This document shows positions 8,900-23,681 of a stretch of 25,227 bases of DNA, piece after piece. The first letter of the stretch is position 1. Every line of letters begins with the position of its first letter. The position numbers were made by a program, and so were the translations under genes. Origin of the DNA: Spirochaetota bacterium (GTDB taxonomy: Bacteria; Spirochaetota; UBA4802; JAFGJZ01). The stretch is from the NCBI GenBank assembly GCA_022704645.1, contig JAKJGA010000009.1:1-25227 (forward strand), written 5' to 3'. The notes under the pieces are model-generated. The model searched no databases. It was not told the origin of the DNA and saw only the letters and a list, made by a program, of their open reading frames with translations.

Positions 8900-9910
8900 A
8901 TGGGATTATTTGATAAATTCACAGATGTTAAAGGTCAGCTACGTTCCGTCATTCAGTGGGAAGATCCGGATCCGAGTTCAATCTTCTACCGCTGGAGCGG
9001 AAACAATGATGAAATTAAAAATGCTTCAAAACTGATTGTAGGTCCCGGTCAGGGCTGTATTTTTGTTTATCAGGGTAAGGTTGAAGGCGTTTTTGATGAA
9101 GAAGGTCTTTATGAACTCAAAACGGCAAATATTCCTTTCTGGACGAATCTGAAGAAGTTTCTTCAGGCGTTTGAAAGTGAACATAAAGTCGGATTATATT
9201 TCTACAGAAAAACCGTTTTTCTTGATCAGAAATGGGGAACGCCTTCTGTAATTAAGTATAATGACCCTGTTTACAAGTTTCCGGTAGGGCTTCGCGCGAG
9301 AGGAAACTACTCATTTAAAGTAACTGATCCTAAACTCTTTTTTGTAAGTGTTGTAGGCGGAAGCGACGATTTTTATGCTGATGATATCAGACCTGTTATT
9401 TCAGCGCGTCTTTCTCAGCCGATTGTAGACTATTTTGCTGAAAGCGGTCTCAGTTATGGTGAGATTGATAAAAAACGTGAAGAAATTTCTGCCGGCGTCA
9501 AAGAAAACTTAAAGAAAGAATTCTCGGTTCTCGGTTTCGAACTTGCTGATTTCAGAATTGAAGGGACAGATTTTGATGAAGATACAATGCGCAGAATCGG
9601 ACGCATTGCTGACATGCAGGCGGAAGCTCAGGCGGCAAATGCCGCGGGCGTAAGTTTCGCACAGCTTCAGCAGCTTGATGCTATGAAAACCGCAGCCGGA
9701 AACGACGGTGCTCCGGGAATGATGATGGGAATGGGCGTCGGAATGGGTTTCGGACAAAATATGGCCGGAGTTGCGGCCGGGGCAGGTCAGGCTGCATCAC
9801 AGGATGATCCGATGCTGAAACTGAAAAAGCTCAAAGATATGCTTGATGCCGGTCTCATTTCTCCTCAGGATTTTGAAGAAAAGAAAAAGGCGATTTTGAG
9901 CACAATGTGA
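8900..9910 (+). CDS. SPFH (band-7-like) domain protein with a Gly/Met-rich linker and a C-terminal SHOCT domain
   Basis: Start MGLFDKF with GGAGG 4-5 nt upstream. SPFH-like core. Low-complexity GAPGMMMGMGVGMGFGQNMAGVAAGAGQ. The C-terminal LKKLKDMLDAGLISPQDFEEKKKAIL matches the SHOCT pattern. Confidence 0.7.
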   Translation: MGLFDKFTDVKGQLRSVIQWEDPDPSSIFYRWSGNNDEIKNASKLIVGPGQGCIFVYQGKVEGVFDEEGLYELKTANIPFWTNLKKFLQAFESEHKVGLYFYRKTVFLDQKWGTPSVIKYNDPVYKFPVGLRARGNYSFKVTDPKLFFVSVVGGSDDFYADDIRPVISARLSQPIVDYFAESGLSYGEIDKKREEISAGVKENLKKEFSVLGFELADFRIEGTDFDEDTMRRIGRIADMQAEAQAANAAGVSFAQLQQLDAMKTAAGNDGAPGMMMGMGVGMGFGQNMAGVAAGAGQAASQDDPMLKLKKLKDMLDAGLISPQDFEEKKKAILSTM

Positions 9911-11781: not shown

Positions 11782-12293
11782 TTTATAAGTTTGAAGAAAA
11801 ACTTCCTGAGATAGAAGAGGGAGTTTTTCTTGCTGATGGAAGCCGCGTGATAGGAAATGTCGCCATTGGAAAAGATTCGTCTGTGTGGCATAATTCCGTT
11901 ATACGCGGCGACATCAACAGAATAGAAATAGGCAGCGGAAGCAACATTCAGGAACTTACGACTATTCATGTGAACACCAGAAATGAAGGTACATTTATCG
12001 GAAGCAATACGACTGTCGGTCATAATGTAATCATTCACGGATGTGTCATCGGAAATAATTGCCTGATAGGAATGGGATCAATAATACTTGATTGTTCTGA
12101 AATTTCAGACCATTCGCTGGTTGCAGCAGGTTCAATAGTTACGCCGGATAAAAAATTTCCGCCGCGTTCCTTTATAATAGGTTCTCCCGCGCGGGTAATC
12201 AGAAGTCTGACTGATGAGGAAGTATTCTCAATAACCGATTCTGCCCGAAAATATGTTGATTTAAAAAATAAATACCTTAACAATTCTTTATAA
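11778..12293 (+). CDS. Gamma-class carbonic anhydrase / left-handed beta-helix (hexapeptide-repeat) protein
   Basis: Hexapeptide repeats (VIGNVAIGKDSSVWHNSVIRGD...) and overall YrdA/PaaY-like length. The ATGA overlap with lepB implies co-transcription. Confidence 0.8.
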   Translation: MIYKFEEKLPEIEEGVFLADGSRVIGNVAIGKDSSVWHNSVIRGDINRIEIGSGSNIQELTTIHVNTRNEGTFIGSNTTVGHNVIIHGCVIGNNCLIGMGSIILDCSEISDHSLVAAGSIVTPDKKFPPRSFIIGSPARVIRSLTDEEVFSITDSARKYVDLKNKYLNNSL

Positions 12294-12333
12294 TAAGGCG
12301 CAAATTCTGCCGAAAATACGGTATCCGGATAAC

Positions 12334-13443
12334 ATGAAAAAAACAGCAGTATTAATATTATTACTTTTCCCGTTTGTGATTTTGCCAAGTGTAAAATCTG
12401 TTTCAAATAAAATAAAGGAAGAAGTTATTCCTTTCCGCGAGGTATGGGGATATCTTATGCGCGGCGAAGAGAAGATGCTTAAAGGCGGAGAGCCTTTTTC
12501 CGACATAGGTTATTTCAGCCTTTGGGTGAAAGCAGACGGAACTCTTTCTGAAAAAACACCTCGTCCGAGAATAGATCTTAGAAAGGGATTTCCCCGCGTG
12601 CATATAGTAATTTCCGAACTTACCGGAAGCTCTCTAACTAAAGACATTCTTGAAAAAGATTCTGAAAAAAGGGCAAATCTTCTTAACTCGATTATATCTG
12701 CATCGGAAGATTTTGACGGAGTTCAGATCGATTTTGAACATGTATCTTCAGCGCAGAAAGATGATTTCATTTCATTTCTTTCTGATTTGAAAAAAATGCT
12801 TTCGAAAGAAAAAATACTGAGTGTTGCCCTGCCGGCAAAGAGAAGCTCTTCGCCTGATGATGCTTATGATTATTCATTAATATCAAACATTGCCGATAGA
12901 ATCATAATCATGGCGTATGATGAACACTGGAGCAGAAGCAAGCCCGGACCTGTAGCATCATACGAATGGTGCGCAAAAGTCGCGGAATATTCTGCGTCGA
13001 TTATACCTAAAGAAAAACTGATTATGGGACTTCCTCTTTACGGGCGTGAATGGTCGAAGAGAGCGAGCCGCTCGGTACGTTATAAAGAGACACGCGCATT
13101 AGCATCAAAAAAGCGGACAAAGGTTTACAACAGCCGTAATCCGTTTCTCGTCTACAAAATCGGAAAATCGCGTAAAGTTATTTATTTTGACAATGAATTC
13201 TCTTTATCGGAAAAACTTAAGCTATACAGAAGAAAAGAAATCCGCAATGTGTCATTCTGGAGAATAGGTCAGGGTCCGCATGAGATATGGGGAAGATTGA
13301 ATTCAGATGGTCTCATAGACGCGGAAACAGTTTCCCGCGCAATGAAAACGGCATCTTTTTTCAGAAGAAGCGTTTTTTCCGAAAAGAAAAAGATTTCTGA
13401 TGTCAGTTCGGCTCTTTCCGGAAAAAATTCCGAGAGAAAATAA
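12334..13443 (+). CDS. Secreted glycoside-hydrolase family 18-like protein (YaaH/YdhD-like; catalytic motif partly degenerate)
   Basis: Signal peptide. GH18 signature region DGVQIDFEH (the D-x-E is retained, the middle Asp is replaced by Gln), plus IIIMAYDEHW and LIMGLPLYGREW. Confidence 0.6.
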   Translation: MKKTAVLILLLFPFVILPSVKSVSNKIKEEVIPFREVWGYLMRGEEKMLKGGEPFSDIGYFSLWVKADGTLSEKTPRPRIDLRKGFPRVHIVISELTGSSLTKDILEKDSEKRANLLNSIISASEDFDGVQIDFEHVSSAQKDDFISFLSDLKKMLSKEKILSVALPAKRSSSPDDAYDYSLISNIADRIIIMAYDEHWSRSKPGPVASYEWCAKVAEYSASIIPKEKLIMGLPLYGREWSKRASRSVRYKETRALASKKRTKVYNSRNPFLVYKIGKSRKVIYFDNEFSLSEKLKLYRRKEIRNVSFWRIGQGPHEIWGRLNSDGLIDAETVSRAMKTASFFRRSVFSEKKKISDVSSALSGKNSERK

Positions 13444-13746
13444 TTATATTTCGTAATCGGTTACGATTCTGTCAGTTCTCGCTTCGAGAATAAAAGGCAT
13501 AACAGCCTTGTGCTCGGGGTGAGCCTGATAGTTATCCAGCGCCTGCTTTGATTCAAATTCCGAATAAAGGCAGATGTCATAACTGCTCTCAGTGTTTGAA
13601 AAATCAAAACCGACTTCAATTTTGATGAGTCCTTCAATTCGGCCGGCAAGTGCTTCGAGTTTTTCTTTTATCAGCTTCTTATTTTCTTCTTTGCTGTTGC
13701 CGCACGAATTTTCTTTTAAGCGCCACATTACTATGTGTTTTACCAT
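13444..13746 (-). CDS. Dabb-family stress-responsive alpha/beta-barrel protein
   Basis: 100 aa. MVKHIVMWRLKE... is the typical Dabb N-terminus. Its stop codon directly abuts the stop of the convergent GH18 gene. Confidence 0.7.
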   Translation of the reverse strand: MVKHIVMWRLKENSCGNSKEENKKLIKEKLEALAGRIEGLIKIEVGFDFSNTESSYDICLYSEFESKQALDNYQAHPEHKAVMPFILEARTDRIVTDYEI

Positions 13747-13755
13747 TTTGTTGTC

Positions 13756-15483
13756 CTAATAATTTATTATTTTTGCCTGACGAACGGGGAGAACGTAGTA
13801 GCTAAGAGAATCTTTATATCCATATGAAATAAACTGAGCATTAAAATTAAGAGCATATGCCTCTACTTCACTGAAGGATGTTGAAGTCCATAGCGGTGTA
13901 CTATTGAGGTTAATATACGAATTGAGCCAATCAAGACTATCAGAAGAGTAATTAGTTAAAGTTTCAATTTCATTCACGTTCGGAATAAACCAGTCTGAAA
14001 AACCATATTGATTTTTTGTATCTACTGTAGTTAAAGATGAATTCCATAAATTTTCAGATTCTGCAGGTACAAAAAAGGAAGAAGGATACCACATGAGAGA
14101 GGTCATATTATCAACTATGGGACTGTTTTCATTTTCATTATATTTATAAAAACGAGTAGTCGGCCATACGACACCTCTATGTAAATTTCCGTCATCACCA
14201 AGTATATAAGGATCAGTTTGTTTTTGTCCTGTTGCCGGTAAAACTTGAGAATTTCCTCCGACTATAAATAAATATTTTTCAACTGTTATATCATCTATTA
14301 TATTAGACCGGTTGTTTTTTGTTTCAAAAGAGAAAGCTTTATTAGTCTCTCCCGTAAAAATTGTAGATGACCAATATTCATAGTTTATATTGAAGTTATC
14401 TAAAACACCGTTAAGATAATTGTTGCCGTTTTTACAATAATTTGCAAGACTTCTAATCTCGCGAATATTTGGAAGGCGCCATTCATATAAAGAACTTCCT
14501 AATTGAGGGATTCCAAAAACTTTTGACACAGCATCTTCATAACTATATGGATCTCTCAAAATTATAGAATTGTCAGTAGTTTGATTCAGCCAAACTAATC
14601 CAGTTAAATGATCTTCGATATAGTTTTGTTCTTTTTCAATACCTGCATCTATTAAAATTGTTGATCTTCTGTTAAACCTTGGATTAGGCCAGCTGACGCC
14701 TCTTTGTGTCGCAGCATCTTCAAATTCATTCATACCGTCATATTTTTCTGCGCCGGTTTTAAAGATCGGTATCGCACGGTACATGTTTACAGTATACTTT
14801 TTAGTTGTTGTTTTATCGGCGGCAGTTACTATGATAGTCACCTTATTAGGCCCCACTTCTATCTCCGGAAAAACATGCTCAGTGGCATTTTCTACGGAAA
14901 CTTTTCCGTTACTTTCTAATTCCATCTTCATGGTTGCTATCAGTATTTCGGGATCTGCTATAAGCGAATTGGATTGTTTGTCATTATACGCGGGATTTGC
15001 GGAATCAGAAAAAGGAATCGGGGCGTCGAGATAATCCTTTATGGAATCATTTAGTGCAGGCTGAAGCTTTCCCTTTTTTACTCTGAGAACGGAGAGATTT
15101 GCATTTTTCATTCCGGCTGCGTCAAGAACTGTTACCGAAACAGTATATTGTTCTGTCGTTCCGTCTGTGGCGGTTACTGTATATGTTACTGGATTGGAGA
15201 AATCCTGAGCTGTTTCGGATTCGGGAGAAATTGCGGCACCATTATGAGTTATAACAGGTGCTAGTGACGTAGCAGATGTTCCAAGCGGAAGAACTGATTT
15301 AACTGTAGTGCCGGTTATTCTTGCCTTATATCCGTTTATGGTAAAAGAAGTAATCTGTTTGTCAGATGTAATTTTTGAGGATGTTACATTATCCCATAAG
15401 TCATTGCCGAAAGAAGTATCTGAGCATCCGCTGGCTGAAAAAAACAGCATAACGCTGATTGAAATAAAAAGTACGTTTTTCAT
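13756..15483 (-). CDS. Large surface lipoprotein with two DUF1566 (Lcl C-terminal-like) modules
   Basis: Lipoprotein signal (MKNVLFISISVMLFFSASGC). N-terminal Ig-like/beta-rich region. Two repeats carry the DUF1566 hallmark (YEWRLPNIREIRSLANY; SDWFIPNVNEIETLTNY). Confidence 0.6.
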   Translation of the reverse strand: MKNVLFISISVMLFFSASGCSDTSFGNDLWDNVTSSKITSDKQITSFTINGYKARITGTTVKSVLPLGTSATSLAPVITHNGAAISPESETAQDFSNPVTYTVTATDGTTEQYTVSVTVLDAAGMKNANLSVLRVKKGKLQPALNDSIKDYLDAPIPFSDSANPAYNDKQSNSLIADPEILIATMKMELESNGKVSVENATEHVFPEIEVGPNKVTIIVTAADKTTTKKYTVNMYRAIPIFKTGAEKYDGMNEFEDAATQRGVSWPNPRFNRRSTILIDAGIEKEQNYIEDHLTGLVWLNQTTDNSIILRDPYSYEDAVSKVFGIPQLGSSLYEWRLPNIREIRSLANYCKNGNNYLNGVLDNFNINYEYWSSTIFTGETNKAFSFETKNNRSNIIDDITVEKYLFIVGGNSQVLPATGQKQTDPYILGDDGNLHRGVVWPTTRFYKYNENENSPIVDNMTSLMWYPSSFFVPAESENLWNSSLTTVDTKNQYGFSDWFIPNVNEIETLTNYSSDSLDWLNSYINLNSTPLWTSTSFSEVEAYALNFNAQFISYGYKDSLSYYVLPVRQAKIINY

Positions 15484-15574
15484 GGTTCTTTAGTAACAGC
15501 AAAACTTTGAGTGTCAAGACATAATAGATTTAATTTGGTTTGACTATTAATGAAAAATGTAATTAATCTGTAAT

Positions 15575-17533
15575 ATGAAACGGCAACATAATATGAATTT
15601 ATCCAAAAAAGCGCTATTTACTCTTTTTTTGAGTTTATTCAGTGTTTTTTTGATTAAACTCTCAGCTCAAGAAAGTATCGGGCTTTCCTTGGAGGAAAGG
15701 GAATGGCTGAAAACACATCAAAAAATAACAGTTGTTCAGGATCCGGGATGGCCGCCTGTAGAATTTGCTGATGAAGAAGGAAGAAGCGCCGGAATAACCC
15801 ATGATTATCTGACTGTCATTGAATCCAGGCTTGGCATCAAATTTGAACGCATTTCGGGACTTTCTTGGCAGGAAGCTTATTCCCGCCTGAAAAAACACGA
15901 AATTGATATGACCACATCCGTAACGGTAACTCCCGAACGGCTTGAGTTCTGGGAATTTACAAAGCCTTACATGAAAATTCCGATTGTTATTGTTACTCAT
16001 TCTGATGTGACCTATATTTCTTCTTTAAAGGAGCTTGAAGGCAAAGATGTAGCTGTGGTTGACGGATACGCAATGGGAGAATGGATTGCAAAAGATATTC
16101 CGAAGATTAATCTTGTTAAAGTAAACAGTGCCGAAGAAGGTCTGATCGCTTTAAGTGAAGGAAAAGCTTTTGCTTTTATCGATAACATGCTTGTTACCGG
16201 ATATTATATGGCAAAGCTCAAAATTCATAATTTGAAAATTGCCGGTGAAGCTCCGTATATAAATGCCCAGGCTATGGCAGTCAGAAATGATTGGCCGATA
16301 CTTGCACGGATACTTGAAAAAGCACTGGATTCGATTACGGAAGAAGAAAGAAATGCTATTTATTATAAATGGGTTCCTATAAGATATGAGCATAAGTTTG
16401 ATTACAGTCTTGTCTTGAAAATATTTCTTTCCGCCGCGCTAGTTTGTTTTGTTTTGTTTATGTGGATAATAAAGCTTCGCAAAGAAATCAGTCTCAGAAA
16501 AAAGACTGAAGAAGCTCTTCGTGAATCAGAATTCAAACTGCGATCGCATATAAAAAATACTCCCACCGGAGTTATACAATGGGATGATAATTTTATTATT
16601 TCTGAATTTAATCCGGCAGCTGAGAAAATATTCGGTTATACAGAAGAAGACGTAAAGGGGCGGAATGCCGGATTTTTGATGACTGAAACATCCTCTGTTC
16701 ATTTTTCAGAAATACAGAAGATGATTGCGGATAAAAAAGAAAGCGTTTATACAATTATTGAAAACTCGCGCAAAGACGGAAAGATAATAGTTTGCGGATG
16801 GACCAATACCCCTATTGTTTCAGACGAAGGAAAGCTTCTTTCTATAGTATCTTTGTGTAAGGATATTACTTCCGCGATCGAAGATAGAGAAGCTTTGGCT
16901 GCGTCTGTGAACGAAAAAGAAACTCTGATAAGAGAGCTTTATCATAGAACAAAAAACAACATGCAGATAATTTCTTCATTTATACAGATGCAATCACGCA
17001 AAATCGGAGACGAAAAAGTTTCCGCTTTCGCGAAGAACATCGTATCTAAAATACAGACTATGTCGCTTGTCCATGAGAAACTTTATCAGTCAAAAAATCT
17101 TTCAAAAATAAATTTTAAAGAATATATTGAAGAGCTGATTTCTCTGATTGCAAATTATAACTCCGCTGCAAATAACAATATCGCTGTTGTTTTTGAAATT
17201 GCCGATACAGAAATTTCGATTGATTCGGCTATTCCGCTCGGACTTGTAATCAATGAAATTATAACAAATTCCTTCAAGCATGCTTTTTTGCCTGGAGCAA
17301 AAGGGCGTATAACAGTTTCATTAAAAAAAGAAAAAGACGGTTCACTGATTCTTATAATATCCGATGACGGAAAAGGTCTTTCCAAAGATTTCGATGTCCG
17401 TGAGACTGCTTCTCTCGGAATGACTACGATTTTCAGTATTATAGAAAAACAGATGCAGGGAAGTGTTGATATCATCTCGGAGAACGGTCTGACTTATATT
17501 CTGTCATTTAAAAACAAGAAGGCGGAGAAATAA
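15575..17533 (+). CDS. Sensor histidine kinase: periplasmic family-3 solute-binding domain, TM, PAS, HisKA_2 and HATPase
   Basis: Signal peptide. SBP_bac_3-like region. TM helix (IFLSAALVCFVLFMWII). PAS. H-box ELYHRTKNNMQIISSFIQMQ (HisKA_2/HWE-like). ATPase G-boxes (ISDDGKGL, SLGMT). No response regulator is nearby. Confidence 0.85.
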   Translation: MKRQHNMNLSKKALFTLFLSLFSVFLIKLSAQESIGLSLEEREWLKTHQKITVVQDPGWPPVEFADEEGRSAGITHDYLTVIESRLGIKFERISGLSWQEAYSRLKKHEIDMTTSVTVTPERLEFWEFTKPYMKIPIVIVTHSDVTYISSLKELEGKDVAVVDGYAMGEWIAKDIPKINLVKVNSAEEGLIALSEGKAFAFIDNMLVTGYYMAKLKIHNLKIAGEAPYINAQAMAVRNDWPILARILEKALDSITEEERNAIYYKWVPIRYEHKFDYSLVLKIFLSAALVCFVLFMWIIKLRKEISLRKKTEEALRESEFKLRSHIKNTPTGVIQWDDNFIISEFNPAAEKIFGYTEEDVKGRNAGFLMTETSSVHFSEIQKMIADKKESVYTIIENSRKDGKIIVCGWTNTPIVSDEGKLLSIVSLCKDITSAIEDREALAASVNEKETLIRELYHRTKNNMQIISSFIQMQSRKIGDEKVSAFAKNIVSKIQTMSLVHEKLYQSKNLSKINFKEYIEELISLIANYNSAANNNIAVVFEIADTEISIDSAIPLGLVINEIITNSFKHAFLPGAKGRITVSLKKEKDGSLILIISDDGKGLSKDFDVRETASLGMTTIFSIIEKQMQGSVDIISENGLTYILSFKNKKAEK

Positions 17534-17763: not shown

Positions 17764-19308
17764 ATGTCTGCTGATAACAATATAAAGAAACCTTCTCTTC
17801 AGAAAATTGAGGAAGTAACGGAAGTACTAAACACTCTTCTTGAAAACAGTTCCTTTCTATCTGAAGTGCCTGATGAAAAGAGAATAGCACTTATAAAGGC
17901 CGCGGGAAAATTGTCCCGTCCTGATATAAATGATGACAGAAAAAGAAAAAAAGAAGCGAAGATTAATAGAAAGAAAGAAAAGAGAAAAGAAGTCCGTTCG
18001 GCAAATGCCGCGACCGGAATCAGAAGCGCAAGAGAATCCTCTGTGTTTTCAGCTCCCTTGCAGATTGAACTTTCTGACAGCAGCAAATTCATAAAAAAAT
18101 TATCTTCACCGAAAACATGTTATATCTGCGATAAAGAATATTTTGATCTTCATTTTTTCTATGATTCCATGTGTCCGGAATGTGCGGAACTGAATTATTC
18201 GAAAAGATTTCAGTCGGCAGACTTGAGAGGGAAAACCGCTCTAATAACAGGTTCTCGTCTAAAGATAGGCTATCACGCAGCTCTGATGCTTCTGCGTGCG
18301 GGAGCCCGTGTAATTGCTACAACACGGTTTCCGGCTGATTCGGCTTTGAGGTATTCGAAAGAAAAAGATTTTCATGAATGGAAAGACCGTCTTCATGTTT
18401 ACGGTCTTGATCTCAGACATACTCCGAGCGTTGAAATTTTCTGCAGTTATGTTGAATCGAATTATGACCGGATGGATATACTGATAAACAATGCCGCGCA
18501 GACAGTGCGCCGCCCTCCGGGATTTTATGCGCATCTTCTTGAAAATGAAATGAAATCTGCAGCTGAACTTCATGCTGATGCGGCTCTTCTTCTTTCGCAT
18601 TATCACGATTGTACCGGAAGACTGAATGCTTTTTCTAAAATAGCTTCTGCAGAAGAAAAAAACATTCCGGTAAAATGGGAAGAAAAAAATCCCGGAATCG
18701 GTCTGAGAGCTCCGGCAAAGCTTTCGCAGATTCCTTATGCCTATGATTATTCTCCTGATTCTGAAGCTGTTTTCCCGACAGGGAAGCTCGATGCCGACCT
18801 GCAGCAGGTTGATCTGCGCACGGTAAACAGCTGGCGTCTCCGGCTTGGCGAAATTCCGACGTCTGAAATGCTTGAACTTCAGCTTGTAAATGCGGTTGCG
18901 CCTTTTGTTCTCTGTAACCGCTTATCGGAAATGATGAAACGCGATTTTACCGGACAAAAACATATTGTAAATGTTTCTGCAATGGAAGGAAAATTTCACA
19001 GGTTCACGAAAATTGACCGTCATCCGCACACTAACATGGCTAAGGCGGCATTAAATATGCTGACTCACACTTCCGCATCCGGTCTTGCAAAATTCGGAAT
19101 TTATATGAATGCCGTTGACACAGGCTGGGTAACGGATGAGGATCCGGCTCATTTATCGGAATTAAAAAAGGAACTGCATGATTTTCAGCCGCCGCTTGAT
19201 ATAGTTGACGGAGCCGCGCGTGTCTTGGATCCGCTTTTCGACGGTATAAACACCGGAAAACACTGGTGCGGTAAATTTCTGAAAGATTATTTTCCGATCG
19301 ACTGGTGA
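17764..19308 (+). CDS. Atypical SDR-fold oxidoreductase with an N-terminal basic region and a C4 zinc ribbon
   Basis: 514 aa. K/R-rich tract ([22 protein letters not shown]). CxxC-x14-CxxC ([22 protein letters not shown]). SDR Rossmann motifs ([13 protein letters not shown]; ILINNAAQT). The catalytic Ser context NVSAMEG is present, but the canonical YxxxK is replaced by HPHTNMAK. Confidence 0.65.
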
Positions 19309-19309
19309 A

Positions 19310-19711
19310 TCACGAAAGTCCGGCTCTTTGCAGGTATATTCCCATTTTTTTGTCAGTCTCCAGGATATGATTGATAAGCCATTTTTTTAAAAATTCAAAA
19401 AGTTCAATATCTATATCCTTTTTGCCTAAGGAATATTCTTCCAAAAACTGTTCAACCTGATAAGTCAGTTTGATATGTTCGTCGTGATGCTGGTCGTATT
19501 CCTGATAGTGATATTTTTGCATGTAACGTTCTTCAGCTGTAAAATGATATTTGGTGTAGCTGACAAGTTCAAAAAGGAGATTTTTCAGATAAACTCTGTT
19601 TTCATTACGTGTCATTGAATTGTGTAGTTCAGTGATTATACGGATTAATTCTTTATGGTGACCGTCAAACTGTTCAATGCCGACACTTAATGACTGATCC
19701 CATACTATCAT
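19310..19711 (-). CDS. Bacteriohemerythrin
   Basis: 133 aa. MIVWDQSLSVGIEQFDGHHKELIRII plus His/Glu ligands spaced as in hemerythrins (HF..EE..M, HDEH, H..ETD). The start overlaps the GGDEF stop as ATGA. Confidence 0.8.
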   Translation of the reverse strand: MIVWDQSLSVGIEQFDGHHKELIRIITELHNSMTRNENRVYLKNLLFELVSYTKYHFTAEERYMQKYHYQEYDQHHDEHIKLTYQVEQFLEEYSLGKKDIDIELFEFLKKWLINHILETDKKMGIYLQRAGLS

Positions 19712-20613
19712 ATAGTGAGCCTGTTTTTCCCGTTTTTCTTGCTTTCATAAAGTTTAGTATCTGCATTTTTAATAAGATCGTCAATGCTAAGATCATCTGC
19801 GATCAATGAGGCTCCAAGAGAAACCGTAAAAAAAATAGTTTTCTGCTTTTCTACCTGGAGAAAAGTATTAGCAACGAGTATCCGTATACGTTCTCCTATT
19901 TCTTTAAGAATTTGAAAGTCGCAGTTCGGAATTACTGCGATAAATTCTTCTCCTCCCCATCGAACAAGTGCATCGAGTTTTCGTAAAGAGTTCATCGCGC
20001 TTTGTGATATTGCCCGGAGAACTGAGTCTCCGGTATCATGTCCGTAAGTATCATTGAATTTTTTAAAATCATCTATATCTAAATATATTATTCCGTATTT
20101 TGTTCCATATTTTTTGAATTTGTGATGAAGCTGTTCAAGAATCATTTCTCCATAATGCCGGTTTCCCATTCCGGTAAGAGAGTCTAAGTATACATCTTTT
20201 CTTAAAAGCTGAAGTTCTTCGATCATTGAGTGCTGGCTGGTTATCTCAGAAAAAAATTCTACACCGCCGGAAATGTTTCCCTCAGAAGAACGTATTGGAA
20301 TTACTTTTACATGAATGGGGATTCTGTGTCCAAGCTTATGGTGAACATAGACATTTGCTGAGACTTGATTTCCGGATAAAATAGATTCCTGAAGGGGGCA
20401 TCCTTCAAGACAAAGAATTTTTCCAGAGTCGTCTATATGCCGGAGAATGTCATCTGAGCATTTGCTGCCAACAACTTCATCTCTCGAAAAGCCTGTGATG
20501 CGTTCAGCTCCGGAATTCCAGAAAGTTATTTGCCGCTCAATGTTTGTGAAGTAAACACCATCAGAGATCCCTTCTAAAATTTCAAACAGGAGATCATTAT
20601 CCATTGTTTGCAT
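19708..20613 (-). CDS. PAS-GGDEF diguanylate cyclase
   Basis: N-terminal PAS. GGDEF domain with an intact RWGGEEF active-site motif and an upstream RxxD-like I-site region. Confidence 0.85.
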   Translation of the reverse strand: MQTMDNDLLFEILEGISDGVYFTNIERQITFWNSGAERITGFSRDEVVGSKCSDDILRHIDDSGKILCLEGCPLQESILSGNQVSANVYVHHKLGHRIPIHVKVIPIRSSEGNISGGVEFFSEITSQHSMIEELQLLRKDVYLDSLTGMGNRHYGEMILEQLHHKFKKYGTKYGIIYLDIDDFKKFNDTYGHDTGDSVLRAISQSAMNSLRKLDALVRWGGEEFIAVIPNCDFQILKEIGERIRILVANTFLQVEKQKTIFFTVSLGASLIADDLSIDDLIKNADTKLYESKKNGKNRLTI

Positions 20614-20757
20614 TATTATCCTCTGAAAAACTTAGAGTATCACAGGAAAATATTAATATCAAGCGGATTATGCTTTTTTTCGTGAAATGGGAATATGGTC
20701 TTATTTCGGATTTTTTTTATAGACTTATTAACCGGTAATTAAAACATTGCAAGTATT

Positions 20758-20860
20758 CAACCGTCCTCGAAATGGGGAAGTCCGTGAGAACCGGACACAG
20801 TCGCGCTACGGTAACGGGTAGATTTCAATCATATCCGGAGTCCGAATACCATGACGGTTG
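20758..20860 (+). promoter_or_regulatory. Cobalamin (B12) riboswitch aptamer
   Basis: P1 stem CAACCGTC (20758-65) pairs with GACGGTTG (20853-60). Core GGGAAGUCCGUGAGAACCGGACACAGUCGCGCUACGGUAACGGG parallels GGGAAUCCAGUGCGAAUCUGGAGCUGACGCGCAGCGGUAAGG of the E. coli btuB leader. B12-box-like GAGUCCGAAUACCAUGAC. The reverse complement has none of these features. Confidence 0.65.
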
Positions 20861-21017
20861 TTCAATTTTTGTCGCGTAAACAAAAAGGGGATACCATGCC
20901 AAAAATCGAACCGCTCTGTTTTCGCATAATCTTTAAGTACAAAGACCAATTTGCTGATCAATTTTGTTGAATCAGCTGAAAGGGGTTTTTGAATATATGC
21001 GATTGCAGGAGAAAATA

Positions 21018-22484
21018 ATGAAAAAGACTTTAGCTTTGTCTCTATTTGTGCTGACTACAGCGCTTAGTATGGGATGCGATGAGCAGAACTACGGAAAAGA
21101 TCCCGAGTCATTAGCAAGGATAGTTTTATTCGAAATAGAAGGAGATAGTCCGACTACTTCACCTGATATTTCATTTTCTATCGAAACGGAAGGAGAAGTT
21201 ACCGGTTATCTTATTCATGAAAAAAAACCGGAAGATGACAATCAATCTATAATGCCGTTAAGGGATGACCCTAGGTGGCAAACTGAGAAACCATCTCATT
21301 ATATTTTGCAGGACAAAGAAAGATACGGTTCACGGGTTTTGTATCTTTTTATAAAGGATAAAAATTCGGTACTTGCTGAAAGAAAATCGATTACAGTAAA
21401 TTATCAAAATGCTAATCCTGCTTTTTCTTACATAAAAACAAATTTTGCCGGAGGATTTGTAATTGATCCGACAATAGCTGTTTACAGCAAAACAATGTAT
21501 GTCGCCTGCGGTGTATATATTTCTGAAAAATATTCTTCATCAAGAACAAAATATTCGCCATTGGTATTAAAGTCTGAAGATTCGGGGGAAACCTGGGAAA
21601 CAATTTATACCTCTTCTGACAAGGCTATGTTTACATCAATTACGACAGATGATTCGGGAAATGTTTATCTTGCAATGAGGAGTGCTGCTGTAGGCGGGAA
21701 ACTCGTAGTGCTTAAATACAGCGGATCAGGTTCATCTTGGAGCTATCTTGGTTCAGCTGAAGGAATTTCTTCCGATACCGCAAACTATGTCAGCATTAAA
21801 ATTCATAACGGCAAGATATACGCTGCTTGTAAAGATTATGGTTTAGGCGGAGCTGTTGTTTACATGTGTTCCCTGAAAACAGGTGTTTGGGAAGCACTTG
21901 GAAATTCCGTTGCCAGCGAGGGTGATGCCTCTGATATTGATCTTTTAGTTTCAGAATCCGGAACTGTTTACATTTCATATTGTGACGAATCTTTCAGCAG
22001 AAAAACTTCAATAAGATATTATGATTCTGTGTCGGGATGGAAATATCTGGGCAGCAGGGGAATTTCTTCTGATATAGGCACATATCCTAAACTCGCGGAA
22101 ACTGATGAAGGGATTGCTGTTTTATACAGAGACGGAACAATTAATTCAAAGCCTGCAGTCAAACTTTTCAAAAATGGAAACTGGAAAGATTTAGGTTCCC
22201 TGCCATGTTATGGAAACATGTCTTCTACTAACGGAGAGCTGGTTTTCTGTCAGGGTTCTTTGTTTGCCTTTTTCAAAGAAGAAGTTGGAGGAGGAAGCCT
22301 TAGATGTTCCTGCATGAAATATTTTTCCGGAAAATGGAATTACATCGGAGGACAGGGTTTCTCGTCTTATTCAGTCGATTATTTAAATGCAATAAGCAAT
22401 GAGAATTGCATTTATCTTGTATTTAAGGACTGGGGTGGAAGTGAAAATTATACATACGGATTATCTTTGGTAAAGTTCTATTAA
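21018..22484 (+). CDS. Lipoprotein with an N-terminal beta-rich domain and an about 7-bladed beta-propeller-like repeat domain (function unknown; candidate B12-associated surface protein)
   Basis: Start ATG 21018 has AGGAG 6 nt upstream; the TTG-extended ORF from 20964 is unlikely. Signal MKKTLALSLFVLTTALSMGC. About seven tandem ~45-50-aa repeats follow, each with a hydrophobic strand (VYLAM / IYAAC / VYISY / IAVLY / LFAFF / IYLVF) and a W-x-x-L/I-G motif (SWSYLG, VWEALG, GWKYLG, NWKDLG, KWNYIG). Confidence 0.7.
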   Translation: MKKTLALSLFVLTTALSMGCDEQNYGKDPESLARIVLFEIEGDSPTTSPDISFSIETEGEVTGYLIHEKKPEDDNQSIMPLRDDPRWQTEKPSHYILQDKERYGSRVLYLFIKDKNSVLAERKSITVNYQNANPAFSYIKTNFAGGFVIDPTIAVYSKTMYVACGVYISEKYSSSRTKYSPLVLKSEDSGETWETIYTSSDKAMFTSITTDDSGNVYLAMRSAAVGGKLVVLKYSGSGSSWSYLGSAEGISSDTANYVSIKIHNGKIYAACKDYGLGGAVVYMCSLKTGVWEALGNSVASEGDASDIDLLVSESGTVYISYCDESFSRKTSIRYYDSVSGWKYLGSRGISSDIGTYPKLAETDEGIAVLYRDGTINSKPAVKLFKNGNWKDLGSLPCYGNMSSTNGELVFCQGSLFAFFKEEVGGGSLRCSCMKYFSGKWNYIGGQGFSSYSVDYLNAISNENCIYLVFKDWGGSENYTYGLSLVKFY

Positions 22485-22496
22485 ATCAAAGAAAAT

Positions 22497-23681
22497 TCAT
22501 ATTATAATATAATCATGTGGTGCGGGAGTAATTATTTCCGCACCGTCTTTTTTAACCAGTACAGTATCTTCAATTCCGACGACGCCGATTCCTTCGAGTG
22601 AAACTTTAGGTTCAATAGCGATTGTCATATCTTCTGTTATTTCATATTTCATTTTCGGAGCGAGAAACGGAGGTTCATCTAGAAGAAGTCCAACTCCGTG
22701 ACCTACGAAACGAACCTTGTCGGAACCGAGTCCCATGAACTCCTTTGAATAACCGAATTCAGAAGCTCTTTTTTCAGCGTGAAAATAAATATCTTCCCAT
22801 ATCGCTCCGGGTTTTATCATGGAAATGATTTCTTTATGAATTGTCAGCATAGCCTCGTATGCTTTTTTTACTTTATCGGCCGGTTTTCCAATGCTTGCCA
22901 TTCTTGTGATGTCAAGATGGTAACCTTCGAGAATGAATGCATAATCAAAAATAATAGGATCATGTTCCCTGATTACGTCATTGGATGCTCCGAAAGGATT
23001 GGCATGAGAAACACCTTTTCCTGAACAGATTCCGTCAAATTTATTTCCTGAGAGCGTGTTAATTCCGGATGAACATACGCCTGGAGAAACTACGAGAGCT
23101 TCCTGTTTGCTGTTGAGTCCGCTTGATTTGTTCAACCGGAAATAATTTTCTATGAAAAGACTGATTTCTAGTTCTGTCATTCCTATAACGAAATTTTCTT
23201 TTACTATTTCGGGAATTCTCGCTGCAATTTTGCCGCCTTGCAGCATAATTTCTATTTCTGCAGGGCTTTTTCTTGTTCTGATAAATCTTGCATCCCAGGA
23301 AAGATCATACGGTAAAGCTGAAGGAGAAAGTTTCATGATTCTTTCGACTGATGAATATGATGTTGAATCAAGAGTAAATCCGATTTTTGATGCAGCATCA
23401 AGTTTTCTGTCTGACCAGATCTTTTTGAGATCAGTGCTTCCTGCAAAGAAAAGAGTCTCAATATGCGAAACGCTTTCTCTGAGCTTTTGATCTCCCTTTC
23501 TCGCAAGAATAAAAGCGTCGCCTTCTGCCGGAATGACGAGATAAAGCGGAATGACCGAACCTGAATAATAGTAAAGTTCAGACGGCTGGTTGAAAACGGC
23601 GGCAGAGATTCCTTTGCCGGAAAGAAAATTTTTAATGATGTTTAGGCGGTCAGAAAATTCAGAATCGGTAAATGTAAACAT
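22497..23681 (-). CDS. M24-family metallopeptidase (Xaa-Pro aminopeptidase / prolidase-like)
   Basis: 394 aa. Creatinase-like N-domain and pita-bread fold C-domain with the His motif VGHGVGLLLDEPPFL and downstream Glu ligands (IAIEP, GIED). Confidence 0.8.
   Translation of the reverse strand: MFTFTDSEFSDRLNIIKNFLSGKGISAAVFNQPSELYYYSGSVIPLYLVIPAEGDAFILARKGDQKLRESVSHIETLFFAGSTDLKKIWSDRKLDAASKIGFTLDSTSYSSVERIMKLSPSALPYDLSWDARFIRTRKSPAEIEIMLQGGKIAARIPEIVKENFVIGMTELEISLFIENYFRLNKSSGLNSKQEALVVSPGVCSSGINTLSGNKFDGICSGKGVSHANPFGASNDVIREHDPIIFDYAFILEGYHLDITRMASIGKPADKVKKAYEAMLTIHKEIISMIKPGAIWEDIYFHAEKRASEFGYSKEFMGLGSDKVRFVGHGVGLLLDEPPFLAPKMKYEITEDMTIAIEPKVSLEGIGVVGIEDTVLVKKDGAEIITPAPHDYIII
22519..22553 (+). 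terminator. Putative rho-independent terminator for the lipoprotein gene, embedded in the 3' end of the convergent peptidase gene
   Basis: GGTGCGG - 12-nt loop - CCGCACC followed by GTCTTTTTT, 35 nt after the stop at 22484. Confidence 0.4.

Follow-up and report, generated by a model that had tools for sequence, protein, structure and literature searches.

Which function is governed by a cobalamin (vitamin B12) riboswitch standing in front of a lone lipoprotein gene, with no B12 transport or biosynthesis gene in the same 25-kb stretch? The question is raised by a 25,227-nt stretch of contig JAKJGA010000009.1 from a Spirochaetota bacterium (assembly GCA_022704645.1), hereafter called the window. 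There, a 404-nt intergenic region (20614-21017) separates a divergent PAS-GGDEF gene (19708-20613, minus strand) from a plus-strand open reading frame (ORF) encoding the lipoprotein. A first-pass annotation had recognized a cobalamin riboswitch in this leader, had named the lipoprotein gene as its target and had noticed that neither btuB nor btuCDF is present in the window, an absence that we confirm. Riboswitches are reliable signposts to gene function, and a switch before a lipoprotein unnamed in databases points to an unknown step in coping with B12 scarcity outside Bacteroidota. We observed that the riboswitch is linked to this lipoprotein family in every lineage for which upstream sequence exists. 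The best explanation as a whole, to which we give a probability of about 45%, would combine a switch turned off by B12, a relay through an upstream ORF (uORF) and a lipoprotein that binds corrinoids.

Identification and conservation of the riboswitch

An Rfam scan of the whole window at gathering thresholds gave no match, and the leader element surfaces in E-value mode only. At a permissive threshold the leader alone matched the Cobalamin model (RF00174) on the plus strand at 20716-20872 with 29.1 bits (E = 1e-5), so that the Rfam match expected by the first-pass annotation is found on the right strand but under the gathering score of 31.5. The aptamer alone matched AdoCbl-II (RF01689) at 20759-20859 with 31.5 bits (E = 3e-6), against a gathering score of 36.5. 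Since the window copy stands near the threshold only, evidence from outside the window was required.

This evidence was given by relatives. The copies in front of the lipoprotein gene in loci L002-L005 and in L001, the locus of a 47%-identical homologue, score 36.5-37.0 bits with RF01689, at or above the gathering score, and their core is identical to that of the window; a second L001 copy, in front of metE, scores 37.1 bits. A MAFFT-only alignment of 13 copies left the divergent P1 arms out of register, and a covariance model was therefore built from seven copies. With it, 17 copies were retrieved from 16 sources, among them those of L009 and L011, which are truncated at the 5' end. In the resulting alignment of 16 distinct sequences, which is fitted to the model and favours pairing, 96.1% of the cells are standard pairs; the controls are nevertheless clear, with 36-53% after a shift of the partners by 1-3 columns, and so are the compensatory changes, 14 of the 41 pairs being changed on both sides. 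On four of five measures the observed values were reached by 0-1 of 500 shuffles, and on the remaining one, further pair types, by 74 of 500. Covariation supports helices P1 and P3-P6. The 8-bp P1 stem, which the first-pass annotation had placed exactly (20758-20765, CAACCGUC, paired with 20853-20860, GACGGUUG), is 100% paired, with five compensatory pairs and three unlike sequences (AACCGYC/GRCGGUU, CAAUUGU/ACAAUUG and UGGUUG/CAGCUA), and P6 contains six covarying pairs.

A chance resemblance, without any riboswitch, would agree with the sub-threshold score of the window copy and with its single-sequence folding, which is uninformative (z = -0.2). It is effectively refuted by the E-values of 1e-5 to 3e-6, the orthologues that reach the gathering score, the strong covariation and the presence of the same element before metE and nrdD. 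From these sequence comparisons we conclude that the window element is a real class-II cobalamin riboswitch (Rfam clan CL00101). It belongs to the short class-II type and not to the long class-I type of btuB, and the likeness to the E. coli btuB leader proposed earlier was not retained. According to the published IIa/IIb criteria (PMC11260477), the J3/4 GGAA and the J6/3 AAUA, which is not UCU, leave the IIa or IIb type, and with it selectivity for methylcobalamin or hydroxocobalamin versus adenosylcobalamin, not readable from the sequence.

The riboswitch is present upstream of every member of the lipoprotein family with enough upstream sequence, a recurrence for which the first-pass annotation had suggested looking. 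This includes members 56% and 47% identical to the window protein, whose neighbourhoods differ; that of the latter (L001) is otherwise unrelated. We consider the linkage between riboswitch and family as settled.

Genes under the same riboswitch subtype

The Joint Genome Institute metagenome collection was scanned with the invariant core 24-mer CCGGACACAGTCGCGCTACGGTAA, which yielded 11 loci. Such an exact search recovers near-identical cores only, and transporters under more divergent cobalamin switches would escape it. In seven of these loci the aptamer is followed by a hairpin UUUUUGU-CGCGnnn-RCAAAAA, a Shine-Dalgarno sequence (SD) and the start codon of MetE (Meth_synt_1/2, E about 1e-146). 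An eighth (L022) shares the upstream sequence of the metE loci, but is cut off within the aptamer by the end of its contig. Two are additional lipoprotein loci (L014 and L018), and in the last one (L023) the switch precedes an NrdD-like gene of 58 aa (PF13597, E = 4e-10). The visible regulon of the subtype is thus settled as metE, the nrdD-like gene and the lipoprotein gene. MetE and NrdD are textbook B12-independent isozymes repressed by B12, and metE is the classic B12-repressed gene. Because an identical module of aptamer, P13 hairpin, SD and ATG lies directly on metE in 8 loci, the logic of the switch is probably OFF.

In L023 (metagenome contig Ga0209800_10000172, 3110-3540) riboswitch, P13 and SD open a 6-codon uORF (MHLTVP, then stop), and the 58-aa gene, similar to the C-terminus of NrdD, lies about 90 nt further on.

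Organization of the leader

The features of the leader and of the lipoprotein gene are collected in Table 1. The lipoprotein gene, followed by a terminator-like hairpin and a convergent gene, is therefore mono-cistronic. The conserved linkage speaks for it as target of the switch, as first proposed, but P13 abuts the SD of a uORF and not that of the lipoprotein gene.

Table 1. Elements of the riboswitch leader and of the lipoprotein gene (window coordinates)
Element	Position	Strand	Description
Class-II (AdoCbl-II type) cobalamin riboswitch aptamer	20758-20860	+	Rfam matches; orthologues at or above the gathering score; covariation
L5 loop CGCG	20802-20805	+	proposed kissing-loop partner of L13; invariant in all copies (those of the metagenome scan were selected by a 24-mer containing CGCG)
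P13 hairpin UUUUUGU-CGCGUAA-ACAAAAA	20866-20886 (loop 20873-20879)	+	99% of cells paired; one pair changed on both sides; loop CGCG kept
uORF Shine-Dalgarno GGGGA	20887-20891	+	abuts 3' arm of P13; position of SD and ATG kept in all leaders
uORF	20896-20970	+	24 codons (MPKIEPLCFRIIFKYKDQFADQFC, then stop); frame and length kept in 5 diverged lineages
Long leader hairpin holding most of the uORF (predicted)	20915-21009	+	minimum free energy fold and RNAalifold on 5 leaders
Lipoprotein Shine-Dalgarno AGGAG	21007-21011	+	spacing of 6 nt to ATG 21018; unchanged in 5 leaders
Lipoprotein gene	21018-22484	+	488 aa; signal peptide, lipobox Cys20; predicted beta-sandwich (~30-135) and 7-bladed BNR/Asp-box-like propeller (~136-488)
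Terminator-like hairpin	22517-22546	+	13-pair stem, then T run; separates the lipoprotein gene from the convergent M24 peptidase gene

The same P13 hairpin sits directly before the metE start codon in L001, L015 and L019. Lipoprotein leaders keep the hairpin, SD and ATG of the metE leaders, but the ATG, which is the start of metE in the latter, opens a short ORF. In all copies the CGCG of L5 is self-complementary to that of the P13 loop (20873-20876), and the two could form an L5-L13 kissing loop (pseudoknot); both loops are invariant and show no covariation. RNAalifold pairs the SD of the uORF with a UUC 5' of P13.

The C-terminal half of the uORF product diverges among the lineages of the close group (DQFADQFC, DCLIYSMF, DCIADLKY, DRFADSVF), and its length is still 24 codons in all five. 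The nucleotides TCTGTTT.CGCA in the uORF, as well as ATATGCGATTGCAGGAG, are invariant, while neighbouring codons vary. Elsewhere the uORF has 6 codons (L001), 2 codons (L011) or, in the nrdD leader of L023, 6 codons. Both the L001 uORF (MSVIHP, then stop) and that of L023 finish with Pro-stop, a context known for slow termination. A faint resemblance exists between the N-terminus of the uORF product (MPKIE / MQKIK) and that of MetE in L015 and L019 (MQTKRIK / MQTRK). It is conceivable that the riboswitch was captured from metE along with its first codons, in which case the uORF would be a relic of metE.

Most of the uORF lies within a predicted long hairpin. Its basal stems pair 20915-20919 (UCUGU) with 21005-21009 (GCAGG) and 20922-20927 (UCGCAU) with 20997-21002 (AUGCGA); they involve uORF codons 7-12 and are invariant. 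The GCAGG arm overlaps the SD of the lipoprotein gene. A middle stem (20940-20948/20983-20991) and an apical stem with three compensatory pairs (20950-20961/20968-20979) complete the structure. Between the uORF stop and the lipoprotein start the spacer is 47 nt in the window group, with no promoter-like site within. Two candidate features of the region were rejected: an intrinsic terminator, since a scan of 20614-21017 found none, and a longer TTG start at 20964, as all homologues start at the MKK codon behind a strong SD and the TTG would overlap the end of the uORF.

The following model can be proposed from this organization. When intracellular B12 is sufficient, the class-II switch would turn the lipoprotein gene off indirectly. 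The ligand would stabilize P13 and the L5-L13 kissing contact, the SD of the uORF would be held in or next to the helix, and the uORF would stay untranslated. Free of ribosomes, the leader hairpin would remain closed and base pair with the lipoprotein SD; Rho termination may add to this effect. When B12 is scarce, translation of the uORF would unzip the hairpin, and the lipoprotein would be made along with MetE and the NrdD-like protein placed under the same switch. Both B12 repression through the uORF and the sign of this relay are what we infer from the predicted folds, and the arrangement suggests, by analogy, a translational relay akin to that of M. tuberculosis ppe2.

Alternatively, control by the switch could stop at the uORF or be absent altogether, or the sign could be inverted through the uORF, with B12 inducing the lipoprotein; the latter would then be unrelated to B12 scarcity. 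The SD and ATG of the switch do belong to the uORF, the L001 spacer of about 270 nt carries TGTTATAAT, and uORF translation is inhibitory in M. tuberculosis metE (PMC11260477). We nevertheless regard this alternative as improbable: switch and gene stay linked in lineages with as little as 47% protein identity and otherwise unrelated neighbourhoods, the window-group spacer is short and devoid of promoter-like sites, and without translation of the uORF the main SD would be hidden in the predicted hairpin, which gives the same sign as in metE. The L001 sequence TGTTATAAT (9860-9880) is extended -10-like; if it is a promoter, part of the expression of the lipoprotein gene would bypass the riboswitch there.

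The lipoprotein family

The protein starts with MKKTLALSLFVLTTALSMGC, whose Cys20 is invariant and lies at the lipobox position, and it is acidic (pI ~5). Its homologues form six clusters only, among 5.8 billion entries, with 94-47% identity; all are hypothetical proteins of uncultured Spirochaetota. A scan of GTDB genomes added only two Spirochaetota metagenome-assembled genomes. Sequence searches in Pfam, NCBIfam and the PDB gave no named relative.

An AlphaFold2 model computed on a seven-sequence alignment (predicted local distance difference test, pLDDT, 80.3; predicted template modelling score, pTM, 0.71) shows a beta-sandwich followed by 28 strands arranged in seven four-stranded blades, strand 136-140 closing blade 7. 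On this model, the seven-bladed propeller can be considered as settled, and the first-pass proposal of such a propeller behind a beta-rich N-domain is borne out. The repeats are most similar to arrays in huge surface proteins. Searching 1.84 billion representatives with a HMMER family profile gave 3704 proteins matching through their blades, mostly giant multi-repeat surface proteins; the full 488-residue architecture was matched by P0005 only, a member of the family. The blades are a common repeat, and distant hits are therefore unusable for context analysis. Four of the giant proteins (P0007-P0010, 2771-3646 aa) carry 13-18 stretches like the blades of the family, with E-values down to 1e-243. 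In Pfam, BNR_2, BNR_3 and BNR_4 reach 16-17 bits only, versus cut-offs of 27-31, and one canonical Asp-box is present (SEDSGETW, residues 186-193).

To locate conserved residues, loops were assigned to faces from the strands of the AlphaFold model and canonical propeller topology. Invariant residues are more frequent in top-face loops (35/92, 38%) than in bottom-face loops (9/47, 19%; Fisher p = 0.03), and they cluster on blades 4-6 (ASEGD, CDESFSRK, GSRGISSDI, RDGTxxSKP and GGGxLRCSCM). In the model, this conserved top face has the pattern expected of a ligand-binding face, which does not indicate the identity of the ligand.

Possible functions

Corrinoid capture is in our judgement the most likely role, although we hold it at a little under even odds. 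To our knowledge no alternative B12-sparing role exists for a lipoprotein. The protein would bind corrinoids outside the cytoplasm and feed an uptake system encoded elsewhere, as a functional analogue and not a homologue of BtuG. This role is favoured because a conserved propeller face, combined with expression only at B12 shortage, fits the established category of riboswitch-controlled B12-binding surface lipoproteins, namely BtuG, BtuH and BtuJ (PMC6143338, PMC10404256, PMC13398666). The protein would lie outside the cytoplasm, and its pI of ~5 together with the conserved top face gives the only indirect indication of high-affinity corrinoid binding in the central cavity of an acidic face, the mode of BtuG.

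Several observations weigh against this explanation, in addition to the uncertain sign of the uORF coupling. No B12 transporter, cob gene, TonB-dependent receptor or btuFCD was found near the lipoprotein gene in the window, in 21 kb of L001, 17 kb of L006, 10 kb of L009 or in L002. The other members of the subtype regulon are B12-independent isozymes, none of them an uptake gene. No specific fold or sequence similarity to known B12-binding proteins was detected, and lectins, lyases, sialidase-like proteins and integrins are equally good fold matches. As to the relay, the z-score of the leader hairpin is no better than -1.4, and covariation cannot confirm basal stems that are invariant, which makes the hairpin a model; the masking helix is predicted from five leaders, and in L001 and L011 the spacers reach 130-270 nt.

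Alternatively, the lipoprotein could be repressed by B12 without binding corrinoids, its function being needed only in the absence of B12 and co-regulated with metE and nrdD. Examples would be the binding or cleavage of glycans or other substrates by a BNR/Asp-box propeller, or the binding of methionine, nucleosides or another compensating nutrient. The other targets of the exact subtype are all B12-independent bypass enzymes, the L001 gene lies within a methionine-synthesis cluster (MTHFR, YitJ-like protein, metE), and the sole Pfam signals are sub-threshold BNR-type ones, beside one Asp-box and best fold matches that include lyases, glycoside hydrolases and lectins. We judge this explanation unlikely, yet give it some weight because transporter linkage is missing and the co-regulated genes are bypass enzymes. 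The clustering with metE seen in L001 is not seen in other lineages. As regards membership in the GH33 sialidases, the FRIP motif is not visible in the sequence and the BNR families stay below threshold, no Pfam hit being obtained at threshold. Moreover, we know of no B12-dependent extracytoplasmic activity for which a lipoprotein would be a B12-independent substitute, which also counts against a non-binding role. In another scenario, which we regard as quite improbable, B12 starvation would induce the propeller as a lectin-like adhesin for attachment to B12-producing partners or to particles, so that acquisition would rely on proximity and not on direct binding of corrinoids.

Returning to corrinoid capture, the riboswitch class, riboswitch-gated B12-capture lipoproteins and one published precedent of interplay between a riboswitch and a uORF are already known. 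New elements are an unnamed, Spirochaetota-restricted protein family as an obligate member of the B12 regulon, the lack of any relationship to BtuG in spite of a shared overall fold, a putative uORF relay acting by hairpin unmasking, and the same riboswitch-uORF design before the nrdD-like gene of L023. We propose, tentatively, that the family could represent a new class of extracytoplasmic corrinoid capture unrelated to BtuG, with a BNR/Asp-box propeller on a beta-sandwich stalk, B12 binding evolved independently, and a riboswitch-uORF-hairpin relay shared with the nrdD-like gene. If the protein binds corrinoids, propeller-lipoprotein capture of B12 arose at least twice from unrelated propeller lineages, and the poorly understood B12 acquisition of spirochaetes is opened up to study. 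If it does not, it is a rare example of a B12-repressed extracytoplasmic function.

Genomic context

The window further encodes an isochorismatase, a TetR regulator, a GNAT protein, an FMN reductase, a PIN-TRAM protein, CarD, a class A penicillin-binding protein, an HtrA-like protease, short-chain dehydrogenases, an SPFH protein, a PP-loop ATPase, a signal peptidase, a hexapeptide transferase, a GH18 protein, a Dabb protein, an Lcl_C/DUF5018 surface protein, a sensor kinase, a hemerythrin with PAS-GGDEF, an M24 peptidase, a methyltransferase and a metallo-beta-lactamase. The surface-type protein (13756-15483, minus strand, 575 aa) has DUF5018, Cadherin-like and Lcl_C domains, and a 514-aa protein (17764-19308, plus strand) consists of two short-chain dehydrogenase domains. 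A 65-aa ORF of the QSregVF_b family lies between the sensor kinase and this double dehydrogenase in relatives (L006, 2991-3188).

Divergent from the leader, the hemerythrin gene overlaps the end of the PAS-GGDEF diguanylate cyclase gene by 4 nt (19310-20613, minus strand), and the pair is probably an O2/redox-sensing cyclic di-GMP module. It is kept in the P0001 lineage (L006) and missing in the P0004 lineage (L002), where a short-chain dehydrogenase gene lies directly before the leader. Control of this divergent operon by the riboswitch was rejected, the strand being wrong. The 94%-identical relative has an extra 148-aa ORF without Pfam hit between the lipoprotein and M24 peptidase genes (L006, 8252-8698), which is absent from the window. 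In L001 the lipoprotein gene is flanked on one side by MTHFR and a Fur-family gene, and on the other by a convergent metE/nrdD-like/YitJ-like cluster with its own copy of the switch. In this cluster (11928-16391, minus strand) metE stands directly under an AdoCbl-II riboswitch (16290-16391); next come a 60-aa NrdD-like gene and a YitJ-like fusion of homocysteine S-methyltransferase and MTHFR.

Comparison with known systems

Assignment of BtuG to B12 capture reportedly rested on linkage to transport genes. As the first-pass annotation had pointed out, the window protein resembles BtuG (BT1954, PDB 3DSM) in being a lipoprotein with a seven-bladed beta-propeller under a cobalamin riboswitch, and both proteins are acidic; this parallel stands, but homology is supported neither by sequence nor by Pfam nor by fold ranking. 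At E <= 10 the family profile finds no BtuG chain among PDB sequences, and none of the 7 family members hits PF16819 or DUF4465 (BtuH-BtuJ type). We take PF16819 to be the BtuG family, an equation that the paper cited below for its genomic distribution does not state. The repeats of the spirochaete protein are of BNR/Asp-box type, and all seven blades of its model are four-stranded and preceded by an extra N-terminal beta-sandwich, whereas blade 6 of BtuG2 has two strands. The spirochaete gene is not adjacent to btuB, and its host belongs to the Spirochaetota, while BtuG is reported to be exclusive to Bacteroidetes (PMC6143338) and PF16819 is described as a beta-propeller family co-occurring with B12 transport loci (PMC13398666). 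On sequence grounds we consider it settled that the lipoprotein is not a BtuG homologue.

With the BNR/Asp-box propellers of giant surface proteins the family shares its blade matches, its weak BNR hits and one SxDxGxTW Asp-box, but only the small spirochaete family has the riboswitch and the conserved motifs present in single copy on blades 4-6. Sialidases (GH33) differ by having six blades versus seven here.

The riboswitch itself can be compared to the RF01689/env8-type class II. It has the same short aptamer without large P6 extension, a four-way-junction core, a B12-box-like segment, a P13 hairpin that directly follows P1 and touches an SD with its 3' side, and control of metE in the same organisms. 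Class-II expression platforms are defined by the L5-L13 kissing loop (PMC11260477). The window copy differs by a score 5 bits under the gathering threshold and by L5 and L13 both being CGCG, versus three conserved cytidines in a typical L5 (PMC11260477).

The closest precedent for the leader is M. tuberculosis ppe2, in which, as experiments showed, a class IIb switch acts on a uORF that must be translated for PPE2 to be expressed, by termination-reinitiation at an AUGA overlap (PMC11260477). The two systems share a B12 switch with truncated P6, a kissing loop that masks the initiation region of a short uORF and not that of the main gene (as predicted here), and a downstream product that is a cell-envelope protein of uncertain function. 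They belong to different phyla and have no sequence relation. The uORF stop and the main start overlap in ppe2, whereas here they are separated by 47 nt (window group) to about 270 nt (L001) and the main start has its own strong SD; coupling would therefore have to use hairpin unmasking and/or Rho. The spirochaete leader would thus add, from a distant phylum, a second case in which a B12 riboswitch acts on a uORF instead of the target gene, with a coupling geometry unlike that of M. tuberculosis.

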